A stretch of DNA of 64,000 nt from a plasmid. Where the stretch lies: the sequence record NZ_CP090008.1, one strand, 5' to 3'. The notes under the pieces were generated by a model, which was not told where the DNA came from, did no database searches, and saw only the letters and a program-made list of their open reading frames with translations. Shown piece after piece: positions 21,106-53,904 of the stretch. Numbering within the stretch: position 1 is the stretch's first letter; the number at the start of each line of letters is the position of its first letter. Both the position numbers and the translations under genes were made by a program.

Positions 21106-22660
21106 AACACAACTCCTTATCAATCGGGAGAGAAATTTCTACACGAAATCTCTTATTATTTTCAAAAATCTGCATCTGACCACCTAAAACACTAATTTTA
21201 TTAGACATATTTTTCAAGCCATAACCTAAGGATTTTTCTGTTTGAAGGCAGTCATTTTCAGAAATGATAAAAATAGCGTCATCATGCACATCAATCTTCA
21301 AAGAAATCGTTCCACCACTAGCGTACTTAACGGCATTGGTCGCCAACTCCTCAACCAGACGATAGGCAATTTTATCGTAAGGAGATAAAAGCCTAAAGTG
21401 GTCAGGAAACTGTGTGACGACTTCATTTTCTGCGTGATAGCGCTTGACAATCCGATTAATCAGCCCTTGATACTGGATGTCTAACTGCTCGTCTGTTTCT
21501 ACCATTGGCTGATAATAATCCATCCGCTCACGAATCCGCTGAACCAACTCCTCTGTCACCAGATTGATCTGTTCACCAAAAGCTTGATTGCTACTATATT
21601 GATTGAAATTTTTTATCGCCATCACATTTTGCAGGATTTCATTGTGAAGAAATTCGGAGAACTGTTGTTCTGTGTCTTCATTTGCCAGCAGACTTTTCAC
21701 CATACGATTACGCTTTAAAAAGAGAACTTTTACATAATCCCTAGCATCTAGCATTTCAGCAGAACGAAAGAGGCGAATCAATTCTTCCGAACAAATCCCG
21801 AACAATAGTAACATGATATTCAAGACCAAAAAGCTCGTGTTTAAGTCTAGACGAAAAATGATGAAAATACCTACTAACAAAAATATAACTAGTAAAAACA
21901 AGTGTGAAAAAGCTTTTATATAGGACAATTTCAACTCTGATACCTTTTTTTGAAGAGAGCTGACAATCGTTTTGAAGTGTACAAAAGCTAAGATACCAAG
22001 AATTTCTAGATACCAGACTAGGTTCATCACTCCTGAGCCCATCGTATTGATATACAAAAAGAAATAAGAAAGAGGCAATATCAAAGCTAATATCCACAAA
22101 TTTCGTCTCTGATACTTGAGCTTGCTTTTCAACTCTTTATGATATAAAATCAGTAAAATCAAGGGAACAAGGTTTAAAAAGAAAGACGCAAACAAGGACA
22201 GAAATAGAAAAATTGAAGGACTTAACAGATACGAACTAATGGTGATTAGTGTCAACACAAAGGACACACTCAACAGTTCTTCTCCTATTTTCTCTCCCAG
22301 AAAGATAATAGACAGAGAACTATACACCAATAAAAAAGAGTTGAGCGGATGAAGAATATCAAAAAAGTACAACAGGGTGCTCGCAACTCCTTGATTAAAT
22401 ATGGATTGCCAGCTAATGAGAAACATCATCAGGAGCAACCAAAGTTTCAACTCACTATACCGAAAGGTCACAATATTACAAATATAGCTAAATACAATTA
22501 AGGCAATAATCAGCAATAAAACCATCTGTAAGGAAAAATCTGTCGAAAAATCCAGAGGAATCCTATAATAAATATAAATCATCAAAGTTAGATGATTAAA
22601 AATCGTCAACCACCACAATAAAAGTGAGTTTTTCGATATCAATTTGACAAACTGTTTCAT
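21086..22660 (-). CDS. pldK: Polytopic membrane sensor histidine kinase
   Basis: About 10 TM segments followed by a HisKA_3-like H box (…FLHNEILQNVMAIK…) and an HATPase_c region (ELATNAVKYASGG…GYGLKNM). Overlaps the response-regulator gene by 20 nt. Confidence 0.75.
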   Translation of the reverse strand: MKQFVKLISKNSLLLWWLTIFNHLTLMIYIYYRIPLDFSTDFSLQMVLLLIIALIVFSYICNIVTFRYSELKLWLLLMMFLISWQSIFNQGVASTLLYFFDILHPLNSFLLVYSSLSIIFLGEKIGEELLSVSFVLTLITISSYLLSPSIFLFLSLFASFFLNLVPLILLILYHKELKSKLKYQRRNLWILALILPLSYFFLYINTMGSGVMNLVWYLEILGILAFVHFKTIVSSLQKKVSELKLSYIKAFSHLFLLVIFLLVGIFIIFRLDLNTSFLVLNIMLLLFGICSEELIRLFRSAEMLDARDYVKVLFLKRNRMVKSLLANEDTEQQFSEFLHNEILQNVMAIKNFNQYSSNQAFGEQINLVTEELVQRIRERMDYYQPMVETDEQLDIQYQGLINRIVKRYHAENEVVTQFPDHFRLLSPYDKIAYRLVEELATNAVKYASGGTISLKIDVHDDAIFIISENDCLQTEKSLGYGLKNMSNKISVLGGQMQIFENNKRFRVEISLPIDKELCYENFVN

Positions 22661-22740
22661 AAGTATCCACTTCCTGAACTACTTTAATATCAGTATAACA
22701 CAATACCAGAATTGTCGGATAGGCAACTCTGGTATTTGAC

Positions 22741-24756
22741 TTATTTTTCAATAATTTGCCAACTTACTCTGTAAGTCACTAGCAGGTAAAGGACAAAGAG
22801 TAAAACCGCTACTCCCAGATAGGTGATATCAATAGAAATGCTGGTATTAGCGAAATTCTCAAAATAGCCCAAAAGAGCTGTACTCAAGGCAAGTGCTAGC
22901 GGACCAGCGATAACCAGCGGAACCAAGAAATAACTTAGAATCTGTTGCAAAAGAATAGAGCGATTTTGCTTTCTCTTATTCCCAAGAAGGTATAAGATTT
23001 GATAATCATTGACACTTTCCAAAGAACTTGTAGAAGTTTGAAGTGACAAGATACTGAGGGAAATAATGATAAAAATAACACTGACAAAAATCATGACAAA
23101 GACGATGACGCCCATAAATCCAAGATAAATCTCAAAAATTCTTCCTTTCGTTTGATAGGTGAACGGATTCAACTCTGCTCCATCACGAGTGAAGTAGTAT
23201 TTTTCTATCCACTGACTTAAGAATGTTTCTACTTTCCGTTTGTCGATATTTTCTTTGAAATTGGCAACATAGGTCGTGTGGTCTTCCATCAATCCAACTA
23301 CTACCTTATCTGGTACAATTAAGGTTCCTGTGTCATTTGTACCCACTGACGATAAAAAGTAAACTGTTTCAAGTGGCTTTGAAGACGCAAGATTAAGAGA
23401 ATAACCGTTAATCATGAGGGTTTTTGTCGTTAATAGAAAGTCCTGAATCTGCTTGGCAGTTCCTTTATAGTTAGCATTGACCAGAAATTGGTTATCTGCC
23501 AAGTCAACCTCTCTTTCACCTTGCAGTTTGCGGAGATGATTGTAGGCAGAAATTCCTAAAATCGGTACTTTTGATTTAGGAAGTTCCTTATCATGCGCCC
23601 AGAGATTGCTAGTATCAATCAAATCTTTATAGGTTAAATCACTAGAATAGATAGGATAGCTGTACTCCTCTTTGAAGAGGTTAAAGTCAAATCCATCTGC
23701 TTTCAATCTGTCTTTGACAGATTCCTGAGAAAACTGGAACTCTTGACCACGATAAAGATTGACAGATACGTCATAAGGTGAGTATTTGTTCAGCTCTCGG
23801 TTCATAGTCGTATAGGCACTACCACTAAAAACTAGTAAGCTGAGAGCCAGTGTCAAGGTCAAGGATAAGACAGCCAACGTGACCGAATTACTATCAGCTT
23901 GTTTTGAAAATTGACGAATTTTAAAACTGTTTAGTTTGTTATAGTAGGTTTGAGGCAGTTTTCTAAGGGAAACCAAGATAAAATGGCTCAAGGTATTGTA
24001 AAATAAAATCACAAAAATCACGAAGACAGATACTAGCAAGATACCCCAACTTTTCAAGAGTGATAGATGGTGATAGTCTGAAAAATAGAAAGCACCAAAA
24101 CCGATAACAGCTGTCGAAAGAATAAAGAGAAGTGCTTGAAGAACTGGCTTGCCTTTTGCCAAGACAGATTTCTTGACCCCATTTTCTTGAATGAGTGCAA
24201 TGATATTCTGCTTTCTAAAGGTAAGAATGTCCATGACACCAACAATAAAACTGGTTACCAAATAGGAATAAACTAGTAAGATGACAGACTTGCTATCAAA
24301 GAAAAGCAGACTACCAAAGTAATTGGCCATAAAAAACTCAGATGCAATCTTAGCTAGAATGACCAGTAAGATCACTCCAAGCAAGAAACCTAGAATCAAG
24401 GAAAAGATATTGACCAGCATGGTTTCAAAGAACAGGGTACGGATAATCTGCCTCTTCTTCATTCCCAGCGTTGCATAAAGTCCCAGCTCTTTCTTGCGCC
24501 GTCCCAGGACAAAGTTTGTGGAATAAACGACGAGAAAGGCAATCGCCGATAGAATCAGATAGGAAAGCAAGCCCATGTACTGGCTCATCACCGTCGTTAA
24601 CATTTCCTTTGCTCCTGATAAACTTTGCATCACTGGATGGCTAGGTAAAGCATTAAAAGCGTAGAGCAAGCTATAAATCAAGGTCAGACTGAAAAAATAG
24701 ATGGTATAGGTCTGTAAATTTCGAAATACATTTCGTAAAATCAATTTTGGATACAT
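22741..24756 (-). CDS. pldE: FtsX/BceB-type ABC permease with 10 TM helices and a large extracellular loop; probably lantibiotic immunity
   Basis: 671 aa. FtsX-like TM bundles at both ends. Adjacent to the MacB/BceA-type ATPase gene. Confidence 0.7.
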   Translation of the reverse strand: MYPKLILRNVFRNLQTYTIYFFSLTLIYSLLYAFNALPSHPVMQSLSGAKEMLTTVMSQYMGLLSYLILSAIAFLVVYSTNFVLGRRKKELGLYATLGMKKRQIIRTLFFETMLVNIFSLILGFLLGVILLVILAKIASEFFMANYFGSLLFFDSKSVILLVYSYLVTSFIVGVMDILTFRKQNIIALIQENGVKKSVLAKGKPVLQALLFILSTAVIGFGAFYFSDYHHLSLLKSWGILLVSVFVIFVILFYNTLSHFILVSLRKLPQTYYNKLNSFKIRQFSKQADSNSVTLAVLSLTLTLALSLLVFSGSAYTTMNRELNKYSPYDVSVNLYRGQEFQFSQESVKDRLKADGFDFNLFKEEYSYPIYSSDLTYKDLIDTSNLWAHDKELPKSKVPILGISAYNHLRKLQGEREVDLADNQFLVNANYKGTAKQIQDFLLTTKTLMINGYSLNLASSKPLETVYFLSSVGTNDTGTLIVPDKVVVGLMEDHTTYVANFKENIDKRKVETFLSQWIEKYYFTRDGAELNPFTYQTKGRIFEIYLGFMGVIVFVMIFVSVIFIIISLSILSLQTSTSSLESVNDYQILYLLGNKRKQNRSILLQQILSYFLVPLVIAGPLALALSTALLGYFENFANTSISIDITYLGVAVLLFVLYLLVTYRVSWQIIEK

Positions 24757-26902: not shown

Positions 26903-27257
26903 AAGGTTGCCTCCTTCCTTCTTTTAGATGATCATCTTTACAGTAACTAGTATAAACTCTAGTATTGGCTAAGTAATGAGTAAATCGTGCAAGTTTCTTA
27001 TTTTCGAGAAAAATTTTTATAGTGCCCAAAAAAAAACCTGCCAAATTAATTTTTGGTAGGGTTTTTGGTAGGAAACTAAATTAATTTATCAGTTTCTAAA
27101 ATGTGTTCACGATTCTAAAAGGCTGATACTATAGTATTCCGAATTCTATTTGGTATATGCCTCTTATTTAAGACTAATTATATCTCCCGCATTTGCTAAT
27201 AACAGTAAAGTGCTTCTTCAGAAAAACTTATATTAAATTCGTATTAAGCATATAGTA

Positions 27258-40264: not shown

Positions 40265-41812
40265 CTAAAACTCAATTTTAAGCTTTCCACAATGAGCTAA
40301 AAATTGTTCTGCTTCTTTCTTTGCCTCTTCATCTGCGGATTTGTTCCTTTCTCCTTTCAATTGAATGATCCTATTGTTTTTCAATTCAAGAGTATAGAGA
40401 GGGGTTTCTCTGTCAGTTTTATCACGAACAAAGACAATAATAGAAGTTCCGTAGACAAAGTGTTTTTTTGCATAACTTCCAACACAATGATGTAGGGTTT
40501 TGCCTTCTTTGACAATTTCACTTTCGTCTTTAGGAAAGATAAAAGCATACTTGTCAAATGCGGTCTGAGCCTTCATCATGTTTGTCAAACGTTTAGCTGT
40601 TTCAATCTTCAACTTCGCCTCTTTCTTTTCGTCCTCAAGGCGTTGTTTCTCTTCTCTCAAATCTCTGACAGCATTAGTTACACGTAAATATGTACCACGT
40701 GCTTGTTGATTCTCGAGAAGAGCTGAATAATTTTCTACGATCTCTGTATGTTTATTTTCCCAATTTTTTGGGATAACTACATAATCTCCATCAAATGGAA
40801 TTCCCAGAGCTTCTACCATTTCTTGATAGTCCTCATAATCACGAAGGGAGATATTGTTTTTCATCATCCAGTTAATAAAACGAATTGGTTTCACAGTGGA
40901 TGGTATGATACTTTCCAAACGCTTAATTAGTGGCTTCTTGTCAGAAATCATAGCGTCTGTAATCAACTCGTATAACCCCTTGAAAGTTCGACCATATCGT
41001 CTACGCAAATCTTCCTCAAAAAATGCCTTTTCAACATTCATATCCGTATTTTTTAGAAACGGTTTATTCCTTTTAAGAAAGTTCATGGTAACCTTACCCA
41101 TATTTGCATGACCATGTCCTAGACTAGATGAGTAATAAGACCTATAAAAAGTAGACCCTACCAAGTCTTTGACGATTCCACGCGCCTTGATTTTTTGAGC
41201 GAATTCAATACGTTCTCTATATTTATAGAGGTGAGGTAGTACTAAGTTTATCTCAAAATTATCTTTAATCACTTGTCCAAAATCTAAATATCTCAACTCA
41301 GACTTTGTTTGTAATTTCTGAATAAGACTTTCCATATCCCCATAAAGCGTATAGACACTAAATGCACCAGAACCAAAAAAGAGAGCATTCCTCTGATTTT
41401 GGAATCCACTTCTATAGATATCTTTACCTTTTTGGGCTGAAAGATATGGATCCCGGTGGGCTTTAACAATCTTATTGTTGGCAAGCTGATAAAAGTTGTA
41501 AAGTCTGACTTTGAACTTTTCTTTTCCTTTTTCGAAGGATTGAGTCACAGAATACATCTGCATTTCAATGCGTTTCTTTGTAACTCCCATCCAGACATAG
41601 TAGAAAGTATCTCCTACAAAGGTCAAACGGCTATTAAGTGATAAGCGTTTTGTAACCTTTTCCGAAAATTTTTTTCGGTCTGAAGAGATAATTGTCCTGG
41701 ACTTATTAGTCCATTCATAGATAGGAAAATCATTCATCGCCCACTTGAAAAATCCGTTAGGAACTTTTAGACGATTGTCAACGATTTCTTGAATAGTCAT
41801 TTCTTTTGTCAT
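40265..41812 (-). CDS. PcfJ-like conjugative-element protein, 515 aa
   Basis: C-terminal HHCVGSYAKKH…IIVFVRDK segment resembles the PcfJ-like domain found in Gram-positive conjugative elements. A coiled coil precedes it. Confidence 0.45.
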   Translation of the reverse strand: MTKEMTIQEIVDNRLKVPNGFFKWAMNDFPIYEWTNKSRTIISSDRKKFSEKVTKRLSLNSRLTFVGDTFYYVWMGVTKKRIEMQMYSVTQSFEKGKEKFKVRLYNFYQLANNKIVKAHRDPYLSAQKGKDIYRSGFQNQRNALFFGSGAFSVYTLYGDMESLIQKLQTKSELRYLDFGQVIKDNFEINLVLPHLYKYRERIEFAQKIKARGIVKDLVGSTFYRSYYSSSLGHGHANMGKVTMNFLKRNKPFLKNTDMNVEKAFFEEDLRRRYGRTFKGLYELITDAMISDKKPLIKRLESIIPSTVKPIRFINWMMKNNISLRDYEDYQEMVEALGIPFDGDYVVIPKNWENKHTEIVENYSALLENQQARGTYLRVTNAVRDLREEKQRLEDEKKEAKLKIETAKRLTNMMKAQTAFDKYAFIFPKDESEIVKEGKTLHHCVGSYAKKHFVYGTSIIVFVRDKTDRETPLYTLELKNNRIIQLKGERNKSADEEAKKEAEQFLAHCGKLKIEF

Positions 41813-41870
41813 TGTTTTTCTCCTTAATCAATAAAAAATGGCCCTAGGACCATTTTTTTCATCATTTTTG

Positions 41871-42425
41871 TTAAAATTCCCCTTCTTCAACAGATAAATC
41901 TGAAAAAAGATCTAACTGTTTCCCAACCTCTTTAGGCATTTTCTTTGTTTTTGGGGGCTTTTTAGGCTTCTTGGTTGATTCTTTGCTACCAGTAGTCGTT
42001 TTACCTGCTACTGATTTAGTCTCAACTTTAGGGGGGTTCTTTTTAGTTTGGCTCTTCTTTTTGGGATTTTTTGTTGGTTTCTTACTACCAGTAGCCATCC
42101 TACCAAAAACAGAACCTATTTCTACTTCTTCCTCAGTAAAATACTCCTTAACCCAAGAAAAGACCGTATCATCATCAACCATGGCCCCTTGACCATTTTT
42201 ATAGTCAGATTTACTGGCTTTTCTGATGCAGTAACGCATAGCATTCTTAATCGTACGATCAAGGTGTGTTAGGATTCCAGAAATCAGCTCATCATCCTCT
42301 TGATGATCAACTATCCAATTATGAATAGCATCCTCAGTCGGCGTGTGAGCTTCCGCCATTTCATCATCAAAATGGCTTACTGCCATGAAGCGGTCAAAAG
42401 CATCAATCTTAATTTTATCTGTCAT
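41871..42425 (-). CDS. Hypothetical protein with a Lys/Thr/Pro-rich tail and a C-terminal QLDLF motif
   Basis: 184 aa. The C-terminus …KQLDLFSDLSVEEGEF contains a beta-clamp-binding-like QL[SD]LF pentapeptide. Confidence 0.5.
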   Translation of the reverse strand: MTDKIKIDAFDRFMAVSHFDDEMAEAHTPTEDAIHNWIVDHQEDDELISGILTHLDRTIKNAMRYCIRKASKSDYKNGQGAMVDDDTVFSWVKEYFTEEEVEIGSVFGRMATGSKKPTKNPKKKSQTKKNPPKVETKSVAGKTTTGSKESTKKPKKPPKTKKMPKEVGKQLDLFSDLSVEEGEF

Positions 42426-42440
42426 TGTTTTTCTCCTCTT

Positions 42441-43241
42441 TTATTTAACTAAAGCTACGTTTCGTTTCCCATCTTGTCCTTGTTTCATTTCTAAAACATC
42501 ATGTGGGATTAAAAAGTCATCTTGATAGGCTGTTGTAACGACACTTAATCCTGCAGAAACAGCCTTAAGTACTGCTTCTACTTCTTCTTGTGTATTAGCT
42601 TCACCGATAAATAAGACATTGGGATTAAAGCGTGGGACTAAAGTGACCAGAGCATCATAGTCCATACGGTTAACCTCATTGACTTGTAGCTGGCCAAAAG
42701 ATACATCCTTAATTTCGACATGTCTTTCAATTGTCATTACTTGCCCTTCTTTAAAAGCTTCAGCAATTATCAAGTAGGCTAAAGTCGTTTTGCCAACACC
42801 TGCACGACCAGTAATGATGTGTAAGCCCGGAATGCGTACTTGTTCAAGTACGTTTTCCAAGCTACTATCAAAATCAAAGTCACGTAAACAAACTCGATGC
42901 TCATCCCTATTGATACAATCTAATAGTCGTATAGCCATCGTTTCTAGTCCTCGAAAATCGCCTACCGTGGATATCCTGATGGTGATAACTCTCCCATCAT
43001 CCAACGGATAGTCACAAGTACCTAGTTGCCCACGCCGTTTTTCGATCACAATCATATCAGCCGTAACTTTTATATGATTAAATAGAACATCCGCATCTTC
43101 TGATGAAATGTGGTCATAGACCTGTTTGACACCAGCTTTTCTAAATGCTACCTCGTATTCTTCACCATGTGGGAAGAAGGTAATATCTTGGATATTGTTA
43201 TCGATAGCTTCTTTCAAAGCCTGTTTAATGTAAGTAATCAT
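42441..43241 (-). CDS. Compact PilT/GspE/VirB11-superfamily ATPase, about 266 aa
   Basis: Walker A GRAGVGKTT, Walker B/Asp box NVLFIGEANTQEEVEA, His-box-like LSVVTTAYQDD. ATG at 43241 follows the RBS GAGGAG. Confidence 0.5.
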   Translation of the reverse strand: MITYIKQALKEAIDNNIQDITFFPHGEEYEVAFRKAGVKQVYDHISSEDADVLFNHIKVTADMIVIEKRRGQLGTCDYPLDDGRVITIRISTVGDFRGLETMAIRLLDCINRDEHRVCLRDFDFDSSLENVLEQVRIPGLHIITGRAGVGKTTLAYLIIAEAFKEGQVMTIERHVEIKDVSFGQLQVNEVNRMDYDALVTLVPRFNPNVLFIGEANTQEEVEAVLKAVSAGLSVVTTAYQDDFLIPHDVLEMKQGQDGKRNVALVK

Positions 43242-43254
43242 TGTTTTTCTCCTC

Positions 43255-44739
43255 TCAGAACTCAAACAAGCTTAACTGCTCACCTTCAGTCGTTGGTTTA
43301 TCGTCAAGTGGCTTTCGACAAGCTACTAGTGCTTTTGGCACCTTCTCGACCTTATAAATAGGTTGCATGGCATAGTAGTTCTCAAAGAACGTATCAAAAA
43401 ATGCAAACAAAAGGTGTCGACATTGCCTTAAAGCCCTATACTCTAATCGAGTATAGTAAGTTGTTTCATCAGATAGCAATTCTGAATCCTTGGTATAAGT
43501 TTCAAAAACCCACCATTCAAAGCCACGTGCAAACACCTCGGTTGGTGTCAAATAATAGTCCAACTTCTTCTTAATGTGAACAGCTTGAGCTAAGTCCGTT
43601 CTGGTTTCCTCAGCTATTTGAATTAACTTCAGCAAGCTAGCCTTGTAGATATATCGAATATCTTTAAAGCTATGTGACGTAGAACTAATGATTCCAGTTT
43701 TATCATACGTATAGTCTAAATAATGTCCATACTCATGTATGAATGATGAGGAATCTCTTACATCAACTGCCATGATATTTAACCCTGGCACATAAAGTCC
43801 GCTTGCTTTATGTTTTCCTAGCTTTCGGAATTTGAGTTCAGGTTCTACAGTCGAATGAGGTAAGTGATTACACAACTTCTCCCATTCGTTCTCTAAAACT
43901 TTAAATTTCTCCTTGTCAAAATCACTACCTCGATAACGCTCAGTATCAACTTCAACTTTCGAAAACCCTAAATCAAGAAATGACGTGTTACTGTTCATTT
44001 CATTATCTTGAAAGATTTTATCCTCACGCACACTGGCTATCGTCTTAGTTGACTGATTAACATATTGTGCATTAAGGTTGGCTGCAAGAGCATCTTCATA
44101 CTCTCTTTTAAGAACGTTAGCTATCTTTTGGATATTTCCATAATAACTACATTCCTTATAGATACCTTCACTATGGATAGACATCAATTCAAGAAAGCTA
44201 AAAGATACTAGTCCATACCTTGTTTGAGAACTTCTCTCTCTCCAAAAACTTAGGTTTTTCTTCAAAGGTACTCTAACCTTTGAATCGTCGACAATGAGAA
44301 GATACAAAGTGCGTTTGGTATTTTCTGCGCTTTTAGTAGCAGGTAATCTACTCCCATGGAGTGTGAGAAGAATCTGTTCACCGAAAAGGTGTTCGTGATT
44401 TTCTTCATCCCTCAAGCTCATGCTCTCGAACAGTCTTTTTAGCTTATTCGAAAAATGTGCTTGATCATAACCAATGGTTTCAATATCAGCCATGATGTCT
44501 TTGACTTTATAGGCTGTATAAACATTATCTTGTCCAAATACCTCTACTGCTAGTGCTCCGACTTCTTGAGATAAAAGTTCCTGACCTTGATATCTGCGAA
44601 TATTCGCATAGTAAGTACAAAACTTTCTCACGATATCTGCAGCTTTATCAGTCTCTTTTATCTTAGGAAAAGTGACTTTTTTAGTCGTTTGCTGTGCTAC
44701 TGCTAGTAAATTAGTCATTGTTTTTCTCCTTAATAGCAA
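43255..44739 (-). CDS. Hypothetical protein with an HExxH metallopeptidase-like motif and a C-terminal QLSLF
   Basis: FIHEYGHYLDY (HExxH). The C-terminus …TEGEQLSLFEF is a second clamp-binding-like motif, in the gene next to the first. Confidence 0.5.
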   Translation of the reverse strand: MLLRRKTMTNLLAVAQQTTKKVTFPKIKETDKAADIVRKFCTYYANIRRYQGQELLSQEVGALAVEVFGQDNVYTAYKVKDIMADIETIGYDQAHFSNKLKRLFESMSLRDEENHEHLFGEQILLTLHGSRLPATKSAENTKRTLYLLIVDDSKVRVPLKKNLSFWRERSSQTRYGLVSFSFLELMSIHSEGIYKECSYYGNIQKIANVLKREYEDALAANLNAQYVNQSTKTIASVREDKIFQDNEMNSNTSFLDLGFSKVEVDTERYRGSDFDKEKFKVLENEWEKLCNHLPHSTVEPELKFRKLGKHKASGLYVPGLNIMAVDVRDSSSFIHEYGHYLDYTYDKTGIISSTSHSFKDIRYIYKASLLKLIQIAEETRTDLAQAVHIKKKLDYYLTPTEVFARGFEWWVFETYTKDSELLSDETTYYTRLEYRALRQCRHLLFAFFDTFFENYYAMQPIYKVEKVPKALVACRKPLDDKPTTEGEQLSLFEF

Positions 44740-44855
44740 AAAGGAAGGTAAAGCTTAAAGCTACTACCTTCCTCTTTCTCTTATATGTACTGTGTACGAT
44801 ACACTATGAACTATACATAGTATAACATGCAATTTATTGCGTAAAAAAAGGAAAC

Positions 44856-45428
44856 CTAATTATTGTTATCAAGTTTCCTTGCATAATCTCGTTTGTGACT
44901 CTCTATATTTCGAGAAATATCATTCTTATCCCAGATTTGTAACTCCCAAGGATAATAGAAATGACTCTTGTTTTTAAAGTAGAGATGGATGCCAGTATAG
45001 TCTTCAGTATCTTTTAAATACCAATTTTTTAGACCGTATTCTTCCTTCCAATCATCTAAACGATCCATCACTTCAGTAATGACAGATGTTGGCAAAATGA
45101 CACGTGCTCCAAAAATATCATTTAAAACCGAATTTACTGGATACCCTTCTGGTCTTTTAGTAAAACGCTCAATCTTATCTAAAATAGATTCAGATGTCTT
45201 CACTCTATAGAAGTAACTAATATCTCTGACATCTGCTACCATCAAATAATCGTTGATAGATTCGTGCAGATTCAAACGATATTTTAGAATCTCATCAACT
45301 GGTACCTTCGCAAAAGTGTTATTAAGATTGACTTTAGCAAGTTTACCATTTTCAAAATACTCTTCTGAATACTTTATATGAATGGTGTTGATTTCAAAGA
45401 TCAGTCGCTCTACTTTCTTGATATCCAA
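44856..45428 (-). CDS. Hypothetical protein, 190 aa
   Basis: ORF in the same minus-strand operon. Confidence 0.4.
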   Translation of the reverse strand: MDIKKVERLIFEINTIHIKYSEEYFENGKLAKVNLNNTFAKVPVDEILKYRLNLHESINDYLMVADVRDISYFYRVKTSESILDKIERFTKRPEGYPVNSVLNDIFGARVILPTSVITEVMDRLDDWKEEYGLKNWYLKDTEDYTGIHLYFKNKSHFYYPWELQIWDKNDISRNIESHKRDYARKLDNNN

Positions 45429-45459
45429 CCCTTATACGTCTCCAAATAATTTTTCTTCA

Positions 45460-46800
45460 TTATACCATATCCTGTTTATTAAACGTTTTGAACTTAATCT
45501 TTTCTTCTGGGGAAGCTTTCAAAAGGAAATCATCAATTCCCTTTTCGTGAGGCCAGATTAGAGCACGAACCGTACAAGATTGCTTAGTAACTAGATCTTG
45601 AACCATGTCATACATACGTTCAAATACCGAGTCATTATCCTCAAAGTCTTGGTCAAATGCAAGATAAATTGGTTTAACCTTTTTGAGTTCAGTCTTTCCG
45701 ATAAAGTCCGAGATAGGACGCCATGCTGCTACTCCTGCCATAGAGATAACACAGATATTCCCCAATTGAAAAAGACGAGTGTTTTTCGCAACTGATGCAG
45801 TGATATCTCCTTTAAGCAAACCTTCCGTAACTAGAAGGTTATCAACTTTACTCATAAGGTTTACTTTAGCCTTACCTGCATCCGAAAAGCGTGCTTGTTT
45901 TAAAATATCATCGGAATAAGCAAAATGGGGAAAAGACTTAGCACTTGTTCCTTCTGGCTTATATGCTGACGAAACAAAGACATATTTTTGCCCTTTTTTA
46001 AATGTCAACTCAAGTCCAGAACGAAGTTTAACACTAGTTTCCTTAGTTGTCCCACTTGCTAGTTCGTGTGATGAACCTTTAGCAAACACATACCAATCGA
46101 AACTTCCATCGTCATTTTGGAAGACCTTAGCAGTACGTGCATTTCGTCCCTCTTGAAAGGCTTCGTTTACTTTGGCTTGATAACTAACGTTATCAAGACG
46201 TACTTGAAAACCTACAATTTGTCCCCAAGAATTGCGACATGGAATTAGGATTCCATCTTTTGATTCAAAAATAGGACATTTTGCGTTTTCGTTCCAATAG
46301 AAACCAGGAACTCCACGCCAAGCGTCTTTAGGAAGTCCATTTGCAACAAAAAGCTTTTCCCAAATAGTTGCTGGATGAGATACTGTTGTATCAACCTGCT
46401 TCTGGCGTGTTTGCTTTGTTGATGAAGCGTAGCCACGCAGTGCAATGGTCTCAACAGAAAGACCTCGTTCCGCACTTGTTAAGTGCTCTACATGTTCCTT
46501 AGTCAATCCCAACACATCAATAACAAGAGAATTTACTTTGTGAAGTGTTGAGATACTTGCCAAAGGTTGACTTTTCCAACTAGGTTCAAAAGTCACCTCT
46601 TTCGCTTTTTTAGGGTCCAAATCATAAATAGTCCCAGCACTACCAAATTGTGGTTTGTCTAGGTCAATCTTTCTAGCACAGACAGCCTTAGTCTGATCTG
46701 CAAAAACCAGACACCAATCTGGTTTCCCACAAATAGGACAAGGGTAATCACGTCCTACCCTAATCATTTCGGTTTGTCCAATCGTAATAATTTTTGTCAT
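45460..46800 (-). CDS. Zinc-finger/Toprim primase-like protein, 446 aa
   Basis: N-terminal CPICGKPDWC…C zinc ribbon. C-terminal IYLAFDQDFEDND (Toprim DxD). RBS AAGGAGAAAAAA. Preceded by a 320-nt leader. Confidence 0.5.
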   Translation of the reverse strand: MTKIITIGQTEMIRVGRDYPCPICGKPDWCLVFADQTKAVCARKIDLDKPQFGSAGTIYDLDPKKAKEVTFEPSWKSQPLASISTLHKVNSLVIDVLGLTKEHVEHLTSAERGLSVETIALRGYASSTKQTRQKQVDTTVSHPATIWEKLFVANGLPKDAWRGVPGFYWNENAKCPIFESKDGILIPCRNSWGQIVGFQVRLDNVSYQAKVNEAFQEGRNARTAKVFQNDDGSFDWYVFAKGSSHELASGTTKETSVKLRSGLELTFKKGQKYVFVSSAYKPEGTSAKSFPHFAYSDDILKQARFSDAGKAKVNLMSKVDNLLVTEGLLKGDITASVAKNTRLFQLGNICVISMAGVAAWRPISDFIGKTELKKVKPIYLAFDQDFEDNDSVFERMYDMVQDLVTKQSCTVRALIWPHEKGIDDFLLKASPEEKIKFKTFNKQDMV

Positions 46801-47299
46801 TTTTTTCTCCTTATAAAATATAACATTGTTGTTGTAAAGTGACCTTAGAAAGTCTCAAACACCTGTTCGAAGCCTTTCCTCCGTTTGCCGACAAGTTAGA
46901 GTTGGGAACACCTGTTCCTCACCTCTAATCATCGAGATGTCGCCTTCCTTTTTCGTCCGTCTACCCAAACTCAAAACAAAAAAAGCATAACAAAGAAGCC
47001 GGCAAGCCTTGTCTCAAAAAACAAGGTTGCGCGTGCCTATGGCAAACCATAGGATAAACTTCTCGTTATGCTTAGTTGCTAATAACGTTTGTTGTAGCCT
47101 TTCAAAAAATTAAAGGCAAATTATCTCGTACCTGTTGTAAGCGTCAAGCCCCTTCTTCTGTCTGATGGCTTAACTGATAGCTAAAAGCGAGTACGCTCCC
47201 TTTTAACCCAATCAAACATGTGATACCTATTGCTGGGACAGAACCAGTAATAGCATCTCCTCTTCCATGTTTACTTTTAAAATAGTCACTTGACTATGA

Positions 47300-48460
47300 A
47301 TTCACCGTTAGAGGTAGTGAAAAAAGATATAAATATAATTATTTATGACTTTAGTATAGCAAAGAGAAACTAACATTACAAGTTAATCGTTATTCGAATT
47401 ATAACTATATATACTACTCTTCATTGTATTATATACTATACATAGTCTATAGTTTACAACACATTATGTATAGCTCACCATTCGTAACAAACGTAGAACC
47501 AAACGTCATGAAATAAAGCATACAAGATACATTACTAAACTATGTATCTTGTATCGTAAATCACCTATTACGCTCTTTATACTATTTTTTATATATAACT
47601 TATTAAACAATAAAATGTAATCATATATATAGTTTCAAAATGTATCGTTCACTATACATCGTAGACTATCTACAATATACGATAAATAATAAACAATATA
47701 TTATTTACACTACATATTGTATCGTGTATAGCAATGTATGTTGATGTTCTTTATTTTCAGAAGTATTTAATAAAAGATATACGATACAATACTTAGTAAT
47801 ACATTATTTAACTATATACTCTACATCGTCTATAATATACGATAAAAGATTTACAATTTGTTTCATTACTCATATATATAGTAATGCTATGTATAGTGTA
47901 GTGTGTAAATTGTATTACGTTTGAGTTAGAACTCGAATATGATGCTATACACTATATATCAATACAGTATGTATAATATATAGTGGTAATATACATCGTC
48001 TAATATACATTATCTTATTTTATATAACATATAGTGTATCGGGTATACTCTAGTTATGGTTTGATACTCTGTAATATTTTTTGTTATTGAATAGTATAAG
48101 GAATAGATGAAAGATATACGATATAATACTTAGCAATACATTATTTAATAATATATTTTACATCGTCTACCGTACATTCTTATATTTTATATAATATATA
48201 ATGTATCGTGTATTATTCTTGCTGAGTTTTGATACTATGATATATGCTTTTTTTCAAAACAGCATATAGTGAACGATACACTATGTATAACTTAATGCGT
48301 AACAATCAGGTTTTAAAAAGTTTTATATACTATACATAGTGTATCTTGTATTATTTACGATATATCTACATACTACTTGATATTCGATTTCTATATGGTA
48401 TACTTTAAGTAGTTAATTACATGTATCGTTTTGTTATACATAGTGTATCGTATATATTGT
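47300..48460. repeat. AT-rich repeat field upstream of parA, with at least four TACATCGTCTA-type iterons, repeated ATAGTGTATCG motifs and two 70-bp repeats
   Basis: The 70-bp units at 47776-47870 and 48103-48215 are about 85% identical. TACATCGT(C/A) occurs at about 47655, 47825, 47993 and 48160. CATAGTGTATC occurs three times in 48290-48460. No ORFs. Confidence 0.6.
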
Positions 48461-48476
48461 ATTGAGAGGAGTAGAT

Positions 48477-49307
48477 ATGGTTGCAAATACAATCGTAGTA
48501 ATGGATGAAAAAGGAGGAGCAGCCAAAACAACATTAAGTTTATTATTGGCTCAAGCTCTAGGAAATGCTGGCTATAAAACGTGTGCAGGTGACTTAGATG
48601 GACAGTGCAATCTAACTACAGCAGCAGGAGTGAACGAAGACGAACAAGAAGGTATTTATTCTGTACTAAAAAAAGAAGTAGAAGTAGCTGATGCTATTGT
48701 CCCGGTTGACGGATATGATCTGCTTCCAGGTAGTAAGCTGATGAAGAACTGGGAGAGTGAAGCATCTGGTTTAAAAGATAGAGATTTTCGTTTAAGAAAT
48801 GTTGTTCAAGATATCAATGACTACTATGATTTTGTTCTCTTTGATACCCCTCCTTTCTTTGGCGTTTCAACAACTAGTACGCTTTTTACTAATTCTAAAG
48901 TTTTTGTACTTATCCCTACAACACCTGATAAGTTTGGTATCGAAGGTGTAAAGGATACAATCGAAGATATTGAAGCAGTTCAAGAAGGATTCTCTTTCTT
49001 TGGAATTGATATTGTTATAGCTGGGATCGTTATAACTCAGGTTGATAAAGGGCCAGGCTTTAGTAAAAAATCAATTAAACAAGTCAAAGCAAGAGAAGCA
49101 GTATCAACTCTTGAGAAAATTGCGGAAGAACATAATACTAAAGTTTTTGAGCAATACTTATTTAATAATAAACAATACAAAGATATGATTGCTAATCAAG
49201 CAAATGTTTTTACAAATAGTGGCTATAGCATCCCTCAAAAACAAATCACAAATGTTATGAATGAACTAATTAAGACGATTGGAGAACACGATGCCGAAAA
49301 AGCTTAA
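48477..49307 (+). CDS. parA: ParA/Soj-family partition ATPase
   Basis: Deviant Walker A VVMDEKGGAAKTT and Walker A' FVLFDTPP. ATG at 48477 follows the RBS GAGAGGAG. Confidence 0.8.
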   Translation: MVANTIVVMDEKGGAAKTTLSLLLAQALGNAGYKTCAGDLDGQCNLTTAAGVNEDEQEGIYSVLKKEVEVADAIVPVDGYDLLPGSKLMKNWESEASGLKDRDFRLRNVVQDINDYYDFVLFDTPPFFGVSTTSTLFTNSKVFVLIPTTPDKFGIEGVKDTIEDIEAVQEGFSFFGIDIVIAGIVITQVDKGPGFSKKSIKQVKAREAVSTLEKIAEEHNTKVFEQYLFNNKQYKDMIANQANVFTNSGYSIPQKQITNVMNELIKTIGEHDAEKA

Positions 49308-49815
49308 TACAATCCAACAAAGAAATTTTAATAACCTTTTATCAGCTGTTGAATCAAATGATCGCACAACAGCTAAAGAAGTATTTGACCGTTTTTTTAA
49401 AGGGAAAGAGATTGAAGAAGTAGTAATTGATAAACTTAAGGAGAAGCATGATATTGCTTTTCTAACTGAAGAAATTGTAGAACCCAAAAAGGCTGCTGTT
49501 TCTCCTAAAAAAGTAAACATTGTTACTCAGAAAAAAGAAAAAAACAAAATTCCTACTAAACTTGAACCAGCAAAAACCCCGGAAGAAAAAGTGCGTTCAA
49601 ATCTAAACATGACACAATTATCAATGTCTCGTTTTAGTGCATTAAGAGCTGTTTTAAATAAAAAAGACCTCAAAGGAGAAAATGGCAATTATCCTAAACG
49701 TGGAGGATCTGATAAGCTATTCACTGAAATGTTAGATCAGATGTACCAACTTCTAGATGAAGAACAAAAAGAGTTGTTTAATACATTGGTAGAAACTGAG
49801 ATGAGTTTTAAATAA
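49291..49815 (+). CDS. Small partition-adaptor protein (ParB/ParG-like role inferred from position)
   Basis: Overlaps the parA 3' end by 17 nt. Lys-rich, about 174 aa. No recognisable ParB-box. Confidence 0.4.
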   Translation: MPKKLNTIQQRNFNNLLSAVESNDRTTAKEVFDRFFKGKEIEEVVIDKLKEKHDIAFLTEEIVEPKKAAVSPKKVNIVTQKKEKNKIPTKLEPAKTPEEKVRSNLNMTQLSMSRFSALRAVLNKKDLKGENGNYPKRGGSDKLFTEMLDQMYQLLDEEQKELFNTLVETEMSFK

Positions 49816-50087
49816 TCTAATTTAACATGTAGTTATCATACAAAAATGTAGGTAACTCGAATTGAAATCATTTTTTGCATACAAAAGTGTAGGTAATTAC
49901 TACACTTTTTGTTTTGTTGTGATTTTAAATATAGTTTAGAGAGAACATAGTGATGTTTTAAAGCTTATTATTACTAATTTTGTTTTAGTAATAATAGTTT
50001 AAATAGTATTAAGTAGTATTAAGTGGTTAATTATAGTTTAAGTAGTAGAACTCCTGAAACCCTTGCTATTATTGAGCTAAGCCTACC

Positions 50088-50320
50088 TTTATCATATAAA
50101 AGTGTATGTATATCCTACATATTGGCAGGTATATCATATAACTTTGCATGAAAGTCACACAAAGTTGTATGTTAAGTCTACAAAAATGTATGTATGTCAT
50201 ATAAAATTGCAGGCGTATCCTACAAAACGGTATGTATGTCCTATAAATTTGTATGTTAAGTCTACAAAAATGCATGTATGTCATATAAAATTGCATGTAT
50301 ATCCTACAAAATGGTTGTAA
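50088..50320. repeat. About eleven tandem 21-bp iterons (an 84-bp super-repeat of four sub-units), probably the oriV/Rep-binding array
   Basis: For example gtatgttaagtctacaaaaat at 50167 and 50251, and g(t/c)atgtatgtcatataaaatt at 50188 and 50272. The repeats are contiguous with no spacers and lie immediately upstream of the Rep gene. Confidence 0.7.
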
Positions 50321-50503
50321 ATTTAAAAAAATACTATGAAAATCAGAATATTAGTGATATAATGTCATACAAAAGGGTTGTAAATTAATATTTTTATACC
50401 CTGTCACATATTGCAGTAAGTAATTAGCTTGTAGTAAAATAATTACTTTTATTTAAAATACAACCAAAATGTATGATGAATGAACTAAGAGAGGTAGAAG
50501 CAT

Positions 50504-51967
50504 TTGGTAGAGAATAGAGAGTTCAGAGAGATCATCAAATATGATAATAAGTTTACCCAAATGTTCCAACTTGGAGACCTTTCTCCTCTTCAAGAAAACA
50601 TGATTTATTCTATATTTGGTGAGTTGCGAGATGTTTATGACGAAAACGAAGCAGCAATCTTTTCTTATTCGAGTCTGGCAATGCTAGCAGGAAATACATT
50701 TTACAGCTCTAGGGAACAAAAAATTGTTCCTAGGACTGGTAAACGCTTTGAAACTACAGTTGAGGAACTAGAGGAAAGAATGACTAAAATTGTATATCGA
50801 CATCCCGAAAAGGTTGTCGATGGTAAGGTAGTCTCTTACACCTCCATCCCACTGTTCAAGACCTTTAGAGTAGACCACGAAAATAAACTCATTAAAATCC
50901 ACTTGTCTGATGCGGAATATACTGAATATGATGAAGTAACTACAGAAGATGGAACAAAAGTAAAAGTAGCGGTTAGGCGTACAGTTAAAGACCTTTTTAA
51001 CAACCCAGAGTGGGGTAAAAAAGCTAAGTACATTCAGTATGGTCGTGACTACCATAATCTATTGAAGAGTAAGTATTCTAAACGATTATTTAGACATTTA
51101 GCAGACTGGCGTAAAACAGGCTTTGTAAAAGATACAGCTCACGAGCTTGAGCAAGAAGTTTTGATTTTGGATAGTCCTAGTTTACTTCGTTCGAAAGGTA
51201 CTAAGCTGCAACAAGCAATGGATGAAATCAATACGCTATTGGTCGATGAGCATGGACTTCCTGTTATTCAAGATTTGACAGTCGAGCGAATCAAAAAAGG
51301 AAAATCAATTACCCACTATATATTTAGGTTTAAACCGTTCGATGACGATTTGAGACGTATTGTTGCAACAAACGATAAAGTCATTACCTTTGAGAAGAAG
51401 AAGGAGTTAGACTTCAAACGTAAGATGGCTATTGTCATGGAGAAATTCTACACTGTTTTTCCTAAAGGGAGCAAAGCTGACAACTACAATAATAAAAATC
51501 AACTCAAACGTTGGCTTGAAACAATGGACCATGAACTAGTTATTGAGGCGTTGGAAAGAACAGGAAGTGATGCAAACCGTACTTTTGGTTGGACAAGAAC
51601 ATTGCTCAATAAATGGGAAGTAGCGGGATACACAAAGCTTTCAGACTTGAGAGATAGTCACCCAACTAATAAGGATAATCGTCCTTCAAATGTTCCAGAC
51701 TGGTCTGAGCCAAACTATGAAAATGGAACGGATGACAAAGACCGTTTAAGACTAGTAGTGGTAGCAGTAAAATCAGCAATTAAAATAGAACTCTCAAAGA
51801 TTCCTGACGAAGATAATAAGTCGGATATTAAACATTTAGCAGAGAAACTGTTACAAGAGAAGCTGTGGGAACTTAAAGATAAAGGATTAGAGTCACTGTC
51901 TGATAGTCATTTTGAAGAGACAAGAGAACAACTTTTGACTGAGATACTTGATTATTTTAAAGTATAA
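50504..51967 (+). CDS. repA: Plasmid-type replication initiator (winged-helix Rep-like N-terminus, DnaD/DnaB_2-like C-terminus)
   Basis: 487 aa. C-terminal …NQLKRWLETMDHELVIEALERTGSDANRTFGWTRTLLNKWEVAGYT resembles the DnaD-like domain. Iterons lie upstream. The start codon is uncertain (TTG at 50504). Confidence 0.5.
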   Translation: MVENREFREIIKYDNKFTQMFQLGDLSPLQENMIYSIFGELRDVYDENEAAIFSYSSLAMLAGNTFYSSREQKIVPRTGKRFETTVEELEERMTKIVYRHPEKVVDGKVVSYTSIPLFKTFRVDHENKLIKIHLSDAEYTEYDEVTTEDGTKVKVAVRRTVKDLFNNPEWGKKAKYIQYGRDYHNLLKSKYSKRLFRHLADWRKTGFVKDTAHELEQEVLILDSPSLLRSKGTKLQQAMDEINTLLVDEHGLPVIQDLTVERIKKGKSITHYIFRFKPFDDDLRRIVATNDKVITFEKKKELDFKRKMAIVMEKFYTVFPKGSKADNYNNKNQLKRWLETMDHELVIEALERTGSDANRTFGWTRTLLNKWEVAGYTKLSDLRDSHPTNKDNRPSNVPDWSEPNYENGTDDKDRLRLVVVAVKSAIKIELSKIPDEDNKSDIKHLAEKLLQEKLWELKDKGLESLSDSHFEETREQLLTEILDYFKV

Positions 51968-51989: not shown

Positions 51990-52790
51990 AGATTATATAT
52001 ATAATAGCGATACACGATGTATCGCTATTTTGTTATGCGATTTTAAGTCCGTTTCGCTCCAAAGGTGCGAAACAAATAAACGACCCGCTATGCGGATGCG
52101 CATCGAAGGTTATACCGTCATAACAAAAACACTCCAAACGAGTTACAATATAGGTGTTCAAGCCAATTGTAAAACGAAAGGAGTTAAGACTATGGCGCAA
52201 AAAGCTCACAGTTTATCACATACAAAATGGATGTGTAAGTACCACATTGTATTTACACCTAAGTATAGACGAAAAATAATCTATAATCAATATAGGAGTA
52301 GTCTGGGAGAGATTTTTCATAGACTATACCACTATAAAGGTGTTGAAATAATTGAAGGCCACTTAATGCCAGATCATGTCCACATGTTAGTAAGTATTCC
52401 CCCACGAATGAGTGTGGCTAGTTTTATGGGATATTTAAAAGGTAAAAGTGCATTAATGATGTTTGAAAAACACGGCAATTTAAAATATAAATTTGGTAAC
52501 AGACATTTTTGGGCAGAAGGTTATTATGTAAGTACAGTAGGACTTAATGAAGCCACAATTAAGAAATATATTCAGGAACAAGAGAAACATGATATCGCAT
52601 TGGACAAATTAAGCGTTAAAGAATATGAAAATCCCTTTAGGGAAACGGTAAGTAATGCGAATGCCTCTTTGAGAGGCTTGTGACGAGTCAAAAGCAATAA
52701 AGCTTGAACAAAGTGAAAGCCAGCGTCTTTAGGCGCTGGCTGGTATTATGGGCTTATAGCCCTTGATCAAACCACCCGTTAGACGCGTGG
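51990..52790 (+). mobile_element. IS200/IS605-family insertion sequence
   Basis: Left subterminal hairpin atagcgatacacgatgtatcgctat (52003-52030), the tnpA gene, and a right hairpin gccagcgtctttaggcgctggc (52716-52746). Confidence 0.7.
52192..52683 (+). CDS. tnpA: IS200-type Y1 (HUH) transposase TnpA
   Basis: HUH motif HVHMLVSIPP and the catalytic-Tyr region WAEGYYVSTVG. RBS AAAGGAG. The ORF-track start at 52030 is an upstream read-through. Confidence 0.8.
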   Translation: MAQKAHSLSHTKWMCKYHIVFTPKYRRKIIYNQYRSSLGEIFHRLYHYKGVEIIEGHLMPDHVHMLVSIPPRMSVASFMGYLKGKSALMMFEKHGNLKYKFGNRHFWAEGYYVSTVGLNEATIKKYIQEQEKHDIALDKLSVKEYENPFRETVSNANASLRGL

Positions 52791-52920
52791 TTATGATTTA
52801 GAGATTATTTATACTAGTTAAATCTAAAAAAAACATACAATTTTGTATGATATAATAGGTCTAAAAATATAAGTGGTAAACGTGTAGTTAATTACTATCA
52901 GTGTTGAGAGGAGGGAGAAT

Positions 52921-53904
52921 ATGTCGAAACAGAAAGATAAATATCTAACACTAAGAAGTCAATTACCAGAACTAATAGACGAATATATAGCTTACCTTCA
53001 AGTAGATGTTGAAGAACCTTCTCCCAAAATGGTCGAACGTTTGTCAGTGATTCAGAAATTTTTAAATAGCTATGCAATTACGATTGATAAAGAGGGTGTC
53101 TCACTATCATTGACAGACTTAGAAAAAATACCACGAGAATTTGTTCAAAATTATTTGGCAAATTTACGTCTGAAACCAGCGGGAAAAAGATTTATTCTCT
53201 ATACTTTGGCAGGATTTTGGAATTATCTTACGAATACCTCTTTTACAATTGAGAGAGGGATGCCGTTGTTTTATCGTAACGTGTTTAATGAATGGAAGAT
53301 AGTTTATAAAGAGAGTTATCACAACATAATATATTCTGAATCAAAGAAGAAGACTATTTTGTATACGCAGCAAGAGCTCGAAGAGTTGCTTGATTTCATG
53401 GCAAACAGTTATGTTACAACGCTACCAACTCAGAAGAAGGCTGATAATTGGGAAAAGGAGAAGGAGCGAAATATTGCTATATTTGCAATCATAATTGGTA
53501 CTGGAGCAAGTACTCAAGAAGTTGTTAACTTGACAGTCAGGGATATTGATATGCGTAAAAAAGGAATTTGGGTTGTTAGAAACAACGAGAAACAGTTTAT
53601 ACGTTTTCTACCCTTCACAGTTCCTTACATAGCTCCATTTGTTAAGGAACGCCGGGGACGCTGGGATTTGGATCCTTCTATACCATCATTATTTTTAACC
53701 ATGTTGAAAAAGCCTATGGGAAGAAATACAATAGGTCATTTGGCAAAGAACATTGGACATGCTTATGGAAAGGTAATCACGCCTAGTATTTTAAAAGACA
53801 GCCACGCCTCTATTGTCTATAAAGAGACAGGTGATATTAAGAAAGTTGCTGAAATACAAGGCTATAGTTTAGACAAGAATCACCTCATAAGATTTATCGA
53901 ATAA
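52921..53904 (+). CDS. Tyrosine-recombinase-fold protein with degenerate catalytic residues
   Basis: 327 aa. The C-terminal fold aligns with integrase box I/II, but the motifs read GTGASTQE (Arg to Ala) and KDSHAS (HxxR to HxxS). The Tyr position is …EIQGYSLD. Confidence 0.5.
   Translation: MSKQKDKYLTLRSQLPELIDEYIAYLQVDVEEPSPKMVERLSVIQKFLNSYAITIDKEGVSLSLTDLEKIPREFVQNYLANLRLKPAGKRFILYTLAGFWNYLTNTSFTIERGMPLFYRNVFNEWKIVYKESYHNIIYSESKKKTILYTQQELEELLDFMANSYVTTLPTQKKADNWEKEKERNIAIFAIIIGTGASTQEVVNLTVRDIDMRKKGIWVVRNNEKQFIRFLPFTVPYIAPFVKERRGRWDLDPSIPSLFLTMLKKPMGRNTIGHLAKNIGHAYGKVITPSILKDSHASIVYKETGDIKKVAEIQGYSLDKNHLIRFIE

Follow-up and report, generated by a model that had tools for sequence, protein, structure and literature searches.

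Positions 46801-51967 of the stretch of plasmid DNA analysed here (64,000 nucleotides of sequence record NZ_CP090008.1, referred to as the window) very probably make up the basic replicon of a low-copy bacteriocin megaplasmid from Streptococcus salivarius, together with its active-partition cassette. The 5.2-kb region combines an AT-rich repeat field, parA with an overlapping gene for a 174-amino-acid (aa) basic protein, an array of 21-bp iterons and the initiator gene rep. This layout, a theta-type iteron-controlled replicon beside a ParA-type partition operon, agrees with an initial annotation made from the sequence alone. The setting proposed there, a module embedded in an integrative and conjugative element (ICE) or derived from an integrated plasmid, was not upheld, as free circular megaplasmids, 126-236 kb in size, match both the module and its flanks and have their genes in the identical order.

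The region aligns over its full length (100% coverage) with plasmid pSsal-YU10, the identity being 96%, and it also has matches in six other circular Streptococcus plasmids (126-236 kb). DNA identity of the module to the S. salivarius lantibiotic megaplasmids (the pSsal-K12 family; pSsal-YU10, pSsal-NU10 and pIKMIN-B501) ranges from 88 to 97%, and Rep is 94-99% identical across all seven related plasmids. All seven share the gene order DUF3854, repeat field, parA, 174-aa gene, iterons, rep, tyrosine recombinase and nuclease, and all are typed as rep_cluster_199 by MOB-suite, the cassette being the sole typed replicon. Because the same cassette is carried by seven of seven free circular megaplasmids, the module is the megaplasmid's own native replicon and not part of an ICE. 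The remaining window and both module flanks give mosaic matches to the same circular plasmids, covering all 64 kb, and a LanM/LanT lantibiotic cluster is carried in the window. Among the GTDB species representatives scanned, copies were found in the S. salivarius group only. Bacteriocin megaplasmids of S. salivarius are already known from the literature (PMC6318363, PMC10086258), and the public records of the related plasmids contain gene names only. In the alignments described below, the eight plasmids are the window and its seven relatives, while two distant lineages, the metagenomic element L009/L010 and S. equinus plasmid p1_CNU_G6 (L014), served for comparison.

The initiator gene rep (50504-51967, plus strand) encodes a 487-aa protein in which Pfam profiles, an AlphaFold2 model and Foldseek reveal a pair of winged-helix domains (WH1 and WH2) followed by a DnaD/DnaB_2-like domain and a helical tail, as anticipated in the description of a Rep-like initiator with a DnaD-like C-terminus. 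Rep3_N, corresponding to WH1, scores 29.7 bits against a Pfam cut-off of 22.4, residues 175-330 match RepM_Acin (E 2.4e-5), and residues 330-381 match DnaD_dom at E 1e-4, just under the cut-off. Across six members of the Rep family, Rep3_N was detected in five, DnaB_2 in four and Rep3_C (WH2) in two. A profile search of the PDB returned a single hit, a DnaD-like protein with an E-value of 0.1. The AlphaFold2 model, with a predicted local distance difference test score (pLDDT) of 72.7, finds its best Foldseek matches in RepE and in complexes of Rep with iterons and the DNA unwinding element (DUE), at probability 1.0 and E 3e-5, displaying the tandem WH1-WH2 organization of an iteron-type initiator. 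The TTG start of rep is supported because a conserved IKYD motif lies upstream of the alternative ATG. Rep is 34% identical to the Rep of L009/L010 and 33% identical to that of p1_CNU_G6.

The 174-aa gene and rep are separated by 688 bp of non-coding DNA, which holds the iteron array (50095-50388, plus strand). Eleven contiguous 21-bp direct repeats occupy 50095-50325, the last of them degenerate, and a twelfth copy lies at 50368-50388, matching the first impression of about eleven contiguous repeats arranged as 84-bp super-repeats. The array shows a 42/84-bp higher-order period, with Tandem Repeats Finder (TRF) reporting an 84-bp super-period at 90% matches. Against 1.2 expected, the window holds 10 matches to the iteron motif; nine lie between the 174-aa gene and rep, every one of them on the plus strand. 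Two open reading frames (ORFs) of 72 and 75 aa inside the iterons were discarded as repeat artefacts. The iterons are conserved in the origin alignment of the eight plasmids, and in NU10 and FDARGOS_251 the array is longer by exactly one 84-bp block, giving 15 contiguous iterons compared with 11 in the window. Retention of the repeat arrays by the relatives favours the module, as their absence from related elements would have spoken against it. The rep promoter (50336-50363, plus strand; ATGAAA-16-TATAAT with an extended TG and the -10 box at 50358-50363) is near-invariant in the eight plasmids. The twelfth iteron begins 5 nt past this -10 box as a direct, not inverted, copy, placing a putative Rep-binding repeat over the rep promoter, which suggests autorepression of rep.

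Upstream of the iterons lies an AT-rich TAGT-type tandem array (49986-50049) with a TRF period of 10, units of 9-11 bp and a G+C content of 0.18. It is present in all eight plasmids, its length changing by whole repeat units; the window has one 21-bp unit fewer than the other seven, and DB-B5 is without a 10-bp unit. The placement of an AT-rich region by the iterons is kept in three lineages, with equivalent TAGTTATTA-type arrays upstream of the iterons in L009/L010 and p1_CNU_G6. Because of its 18% G+C and its position adjoining the iterons, the array is likely the unwinding element. Between the array and the iterons stands the origin box CTGAAACCCTTG (50054-50065, plus strand), a CTGAAA(N)CCCTTG element found at this place in all three Rep lineages (8657-8669 in L009; 4497-4509 in L014) and inverted in L009/L010. 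Exactly one copy occurs per locus, against an expectation of 0.03 per 64 kb. The two distant lineages share the overall plan, consisting of an AT-rich array, the box, 7-8 contiguous iterons of 21 bp whose super-period is 42 or 63 bp, and further copies near the start of rep. The iteron sequences themselves change with the Rep lineage and are unrelated between the three, in line with each Rep recognising a set of repeats of its own. The intrinsic terminator of the par operon (49883-49909, plus strand) uses an iteron-like sequence as its stem, and a second iteron-like copy is found close by at 49836-49858. The motif GTAGTTAATTA, common to the parA leader, the TAGT array and the recombinase leader, was dropped, since its 5 matches against 3.4 expected are not above chance.

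The partition half begins with parA (48477-49307, plus strand), encoding a 276-aa ParA/Soj-type ATPase with Pfam matches to AAA_31 (E 7.5e-35) and CbiA (E 2.8e-16). The best start is the ATG at 48477, the same as in the RefSeq copies. The best PDB sequence matches are ParA/Soj proteins (E 1e-18), and ParA of the distant L010 module is 55% identical. AAA_31 begins at residue 9 of the 281-aa ORF, and the protein has no N-terminal DNA-binding extension, as is characteristic of type Ib ParA proteins. The deviant Walker A motif noted at the outset is present as KGGAAKTT at residues 12-19 (48510-48533) and includes the signature lysine. Alanine or serine replaces the glycine usual before the lysine, a feature kept in the related plasmids and in L010 (KGGVAKTT).

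The 174-aa gene (49291-49815, plus strand) overlaps parA by 17 nt and encodes a protein with a pI of 9.2, in keeping with the overlapping small basic protein first described. Its designation as a small ParB had to be abandoned, given the absence of any ParB/ParBc domain and of detectable relatives outside the plasmid group; the combination of ParBc and helix-turn-helix domains that defines type Ia ParB/Spo0J proteins is not found in it. An exhaustive HMMER profile search returned 13 hits among 1.84 billion representatives, nearly all of them close relatives or fragments. Two are distant relatives, and both of their genes also follow a ParA gene. The small protein of L010, 50% identical, is likewise encoded after a ParA gene, so that the pairing of ParA with a small gene immediately downstream is conserved in three lineages. 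In the AlphaFold2 model, residues 1-60 form a confidently predicted three-helix N-terminal domain; a basic linker of low complexity and variable length follows, and the C-terminus is of low confidence (pLDDT <50). By position and size the protein would be a type Ib-like adaptor, belonging to no known adaptor family, and it is presumed to bind the centromere and to be translationally coupled to parA. In the pSsal-YU10 record the gene (22494-23019 of locus L001) is annotated as two overlapping short ORFs, suggesting that this entry contains a frameshift or a sequencing error.

Upstream of parA, the minus-strand DUF3854 gene begins at 46800 and is followed by 1.68 kb of DNA devoid of credible ORFs. 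The initial annotation treated the upstream DNA as 1.2 kb of AT-rich sequence with several repeat families and two 70-bp repeats. This description holds for 47311-48476 and fails for 46801-47310, which has 40% G+C and is highly structured. The field proper, 1.17 kb long, has a G+C content of 0.24 against 0.34 for the window, and its only ORF of at least 40 aa is a chance frame of 47 aa. All three exact window copies of TACATCGTCTA lie inside it, along with three of the four copies of ATAGTGTATCG and five of the six copies of ATATACGATA. ATCGT, the core common to these motifs, has 17 copies in the field, where the rest of the window would predict 2.5 (Poisson p 1e-9). The longer repeats are real as well, measuring 88 nt at 80% identity (47745/48082) and 60 nt at 82% (47987/48154), while BLAST gives 63 nt at 89%. 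The field is a mosaic in which blocks of 170-350 bp have been duplicated or lost between plasmids.

Three perfect palindromes of the form (G/T)ATACA-N3-TGTAT(C/A) (48275-48289, 48331-48345 and 48435-48449) flank the parA promoter, which consists of a -35 box TTGATA at 48377-48382 and a TG-extended -10 box TATACT at 48399-48404 on the plus strand. The promoter region is near-invariant in the eight plasmids; the two promoter-proximal palindromes are perfect in all eight, with the one just upstream of the -35 box showing a 1-nt variant in some. The sole other perfect palindrome in the window lies in the rep terminator (52009-52023). In the 139 kb of pSsal-YU10, too, perfect palindromes are confined to the parA promoter and the rep terminator, and the same applies to every plasmid examined. 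With up to two mismatches allowed, 14 of the 28 window matches to KATACA-N3-TGTATM fall in the field, so that repeated sites are found both at and upstream of the parA promoter. In L010 the shorter parA upstream region repeats a related 13-mer, ATACATCACCTAT, and a palindrome is located in the parA leader. The pattern fits a dimeric binding protein that would repress parA and nucleate the partition complex, the palindromes being the likely targets of the 174-aa protein. The whole field is a plausible centromere and a candidate operator region of the par operon. A back-to-back degenerate pair of the parA-type motif TATACATAGTGTATCGT, with three mismatches in each copy, lies at 44796-44828 upstream of a gene for a 494-aa LPD1-domain protein and may be an outlying operator.

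The strongest challenge to this assignment is that the field is no centromere but fast-evolving spacer or promoter DNA, or a transfer or leading-region part of the DUF3854 operon, with the 174-aa protein acting as a regulator or being unrelated. The variable copy number of the field modules between plasmids, the compositional bias of the field toward TA, TG and CA steps, with a wealth of alternating pyrimidine-purine steps, and the lack of a known DNA-binding domain in the 174-aa protein would all suit such an explanation. Against these stand the ATCGT cores, which number 17-19 in each of the eight plasmids despite the changes in block copy number, the invariance of the promoter-proximal palindromes and the preserved pairing of ParA with its small gene. 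The field can moreover be assigned to parA, because a second DUF3854-type leader in pSsal-YU10 has no such field beside it. A function other than that of a centromere is therefore considered unlikely.

Alternatively, the TAGT array could be the true centromere, with the upstream field merely promoter or regulatory DNA. Analogues exist in the TAGTARRR repeats bound by RepC of pAD1 and in parC2 of pB171. The array directly follows the par operon, its short tandem units of 9-11 bp would suit a small dimeric binding protein, and a similar motif occurs in L009/L010, whose small protein is the 50% identical relative. Plasmid p1_CNU_G6, however, has the same type of array upstream of its iterons and no parAB adjoining rep, indicating that the array travels with the origin and belongs to it. 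Its low G+C content next to the iterons is what an unwinding element would show, and TAGTWWWAAR is not enriched elsewhere in the window. The array was accordingly rejected as first-choice centromere, a role that we regard as quite improbable.

It is scarcely credible that the module represents an integrated plasmid or acts as an auxiliary of an ICE, serving replication and partition only after excision: the tyrosine recombinase gene downstream of rep (52921-53904) and the nearby conjugation-associated genes (PcfJ, PcfK, a VirB11/T2SSE-like ATPase and DUF3854) would suit it, but the complete coverage of the window by circular plasmids, seven of which have the cassette as their only typed replicon, speaks against it, as does the recombinase, which is kept beside rep in all these plasmids and fits multimer resolution, while chromosomal genes, attachment-site repeats or a chromosomal flank were not seen in the window, nor was the chromosomal integration with flanking attachment sites and a conjugation module that characterizes an ICE. 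Hardly tenable, too, is the notion that the rep product is a primosomal DnaD paralogue, which the initial annotation had named as a possible refutation, or a phage-type replisome organiser devoid of origin-specific activity; the DnaD_dom and DnaB_2 signals and the labels of relatives ('DnaD domain protein', 'conserved phage C-terminal domain') favour it, but the DnaD signal is restricted to residues 330-381, the N-terminal 330 residues are a RepE-type WH1-WH2 unit by profile and fold, lineage-specific iterons always lie directly upstream of rep, and this is the sole replication initiator found in the region.

Several observations weigh against reading the region as a replicon and partition cassette. 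DnaA boxes with up to one mismatch are missing from both intergenic regions, their total in the window being at chance level. The 174-aa protein has no match in Pfam (E up to 10), NCBIfam, PDB sequences or, with its AlphaFold2 model, Foldseek. A ribbon-helix-helix-like C-terminal pattern (strand, helix, glycine, helix) is recognisable by eye only, in this protein and its relative P0030, and profile and fold searches do not confirm it. Part of the k-mer enrichment in the field may be compositional, and the field is unusually long. Finally, the searched literature offers neither a description of the origin or centromere nor experimental activity for this plasmid family.

From the replicon and partition elements described above we infer the following working model. 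RepE-like Rep monomers would bind the 11-12 direct 21-bp iterons and, since these are two helical turns apart, all copies would face the same side of the DNA. Rep binding would open the adjacent 18%-G+C TAGT array as the DUE, and the DnaD/DnaB_2-like C-terminal domain would recruit the helicase-loading machinery of the host, leading to theta replication. The twelfth iteron at the rep transcription start would mediate autorepression, and the large number of iterons could permit handcuffing, holding the copy number low. The 174-aa protein, translationally coupled to ParA, would bind the palindromes, the degenerate copies in the field and the site in the rep terminator, repressing the parA promoter and building a partition complex that nucleoid-bound ParA-ATP would move.

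Comparison with known systems places the origin within the published class A theta plan of lactic acid bacteria, in an enlarged form (PMC4490491). Class A theta origins (pCI305, pWV02, pUCL22; Rep_3 family) have an AT-rich region followed by direct iterons of about 22 bp upstream of rep, and some repeats overlap the signals for its expression (PMC4490491). The window has the same layout of AT-rich region, iterons and rep and the same Rep3_N domain, and its Rep is 26-29% identical to lactococcal plasmid Rep proteins. Whereas class A origins contain 3.5 iterons of 22 bp, the window family has 11-15 of 21 bp in 84-bp super-repeats, and its Rep is larger, with 487 aa, the DnaD/DnaB_2-like domain and the helical tail. 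The rep promoter of the window bears a direct iteron copy as opposed to the inverted repeats of the class A description, and the CTGAAA(N)CCCTTG box is an additional conserved element. With RepE/ori2 of mini-F and its kin (TrfA, pi, RepA of pPS10) the window has in common a predicted WH1-WH2 fold and direct iterons by an AT-rich element. Sequence identity to this type is about 16%, and the window differs by lacking DnaA boxes, by the extra C-terminal DnaD-like domain and by having all iterons upstream of rep, with no downstream control array. Within the pSsal-K12 family of megaplasmids the gene order is the same, and the window differs in an insertion of the IS200 insertion sequence (IS) family, in its 11 iterons against the 15 of NU10 and FDARGOS_251, and in its shorter TAGT array.

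Type Ib partition systems, exemplified by TP228 ParF/ParG, pSM19035 delta/omega, pB171 par2, pAD1 RepB/RepC and pCF10 PrgP/PrgO, comprise a small ParA, a small basic adaptor encoded downstream and repeats at the parA promoter. In pB171 there are two sites, parC1 and parC2, the further one beyond the operon. The window resembles them in its small ParA with no N-terminal DNA-binding domain, its basic downstream partner, its promoter repeats and an extra site beyond the operon. In contrast, its adaptor shows no detectable homology to ParG, omega, RepC or PrgO and is larger, with 174 aa and a predicted folded N-terminal three-helix domain. The PrgP (pCF10) profile match reaches 42 bits against a cut-off of 400. 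The candidate centromere, at about 1.2 kb, is far longer than usual for type Ib, and the P-loop has alanine or serine against the glycine usual before the lysine in type Ib ParA. It is a tentative possibility, on balance doubtful, that the partition half represents a distinct subtype of ParA system, defined by an orphan adaptor with a new three-helix N-terminal domain, a KGGxAKTT P-loop and a kilobase-scale, rapidly rearranging palindrome centromere. Because perfect palindromes bracket the whole par-ori-rep cassette, such an adaptor could link partition to the repression of parA and to the termination of rep transcription.

The DNA preceding the field (46801-47310, minus strand; G+C 0.40, non-repetitive) is a conserved, highly structured leader of about 520 nt upstream of the divergent DUF3854 operon, with no par or rep function. 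A sigma-70-like promoter (TTGACG-16-GATAAT, 47147 to 47120, minus strand) is located within it. Across the seven related plasmids its identity per 100-column block is 75-100%, mostly above 90%, and both of its strands fold much more stably than shuffled controls (z-scores of -5.3 and -6.1). The structure includes an extended hairpin, about 200 nt long, as well as a terminator-like hairpin with a U-run behind it, and a search of 46700-50600 against Rfam, with gathering and E-value thresholds, found no RNA family. Each related plasmid contains two places matching the leader. The second copy in pSsal-YU10 (13894-14411 of locus L016; 528 nt, 91% identical, same sense) directly precedes an operon with genes for a hypothetical protein, ssb, a nuclease and an ERF recombinase, while the operon behind the leader of the window encodes DUF3854, a small alarmone-synthetase-like protein, a PcfK/AcrIIA9-like protein, PcfJ and an SNF2-methylase. 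Both leader-headed operons look like early-establishment ("leading region") gene sets, and the leader may be an attenuator leader or a single-strand promoter. Typical conjugative leading-region genes occupy 34144-46800 on the minus strand, encoding a PcfK/AcrIIA9-family protein, PcfJ, an SNF2 helicase with an Eco57I-like methylase, a VirB11/T2SSE-like ATPase and DUF3854. The related plasmids are non-mobilizable by MOB-suite typing, yet they are called transmissible in the literature.

Downstream of rep, a terminator hairpin (52003-52029, plus strand), present in all plasmids, holds the fourth perfect palindrome, GATACA-N3-TGTATC. It is directly followed by an IS200-family element with a Y1 transposase (52030-52800), found in the window only and absent from the five related plasmids aligned at the junction. 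The tyrosine recombinase gene follows rep in all eight plasmids and is a candidate multimer-resolution function of the maintenance region. Another recombinase, of XerS type, is annotated in those plasmid regions that match the first ~7.6 kb of the window. Elsewhere in the window, the minus-strand segments 27028-27168 and 31207-31391 match the Listeria small RNA families rli38 (70.6 bits) and rli28 (60.3 bits) above the Rfam gathering score.

The conceptual gain is small, as the cassette combines a standard iteron replicon with a ParA system that has an uncharacterised adaptor. Modest novelty lies in the orphan adaptor, in the conserved origin box and in a candidate centromere of unusual length and variability. 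The megaplasmids of S. salivarius encode the salivaricin lantibiotics of K12 and M18, two commercial oral probiotics, and loss of the plasmid abolishes their production (PMC10086258). A defined minimal cassette could serve as the basis of a low-copy, stable cloning vector for oral streptococci, allow incompatibility-based curing of these plasmids and provide a marker for tracking them in metagenomes, where the Rep cluster comprises about 2,000 member sequences.

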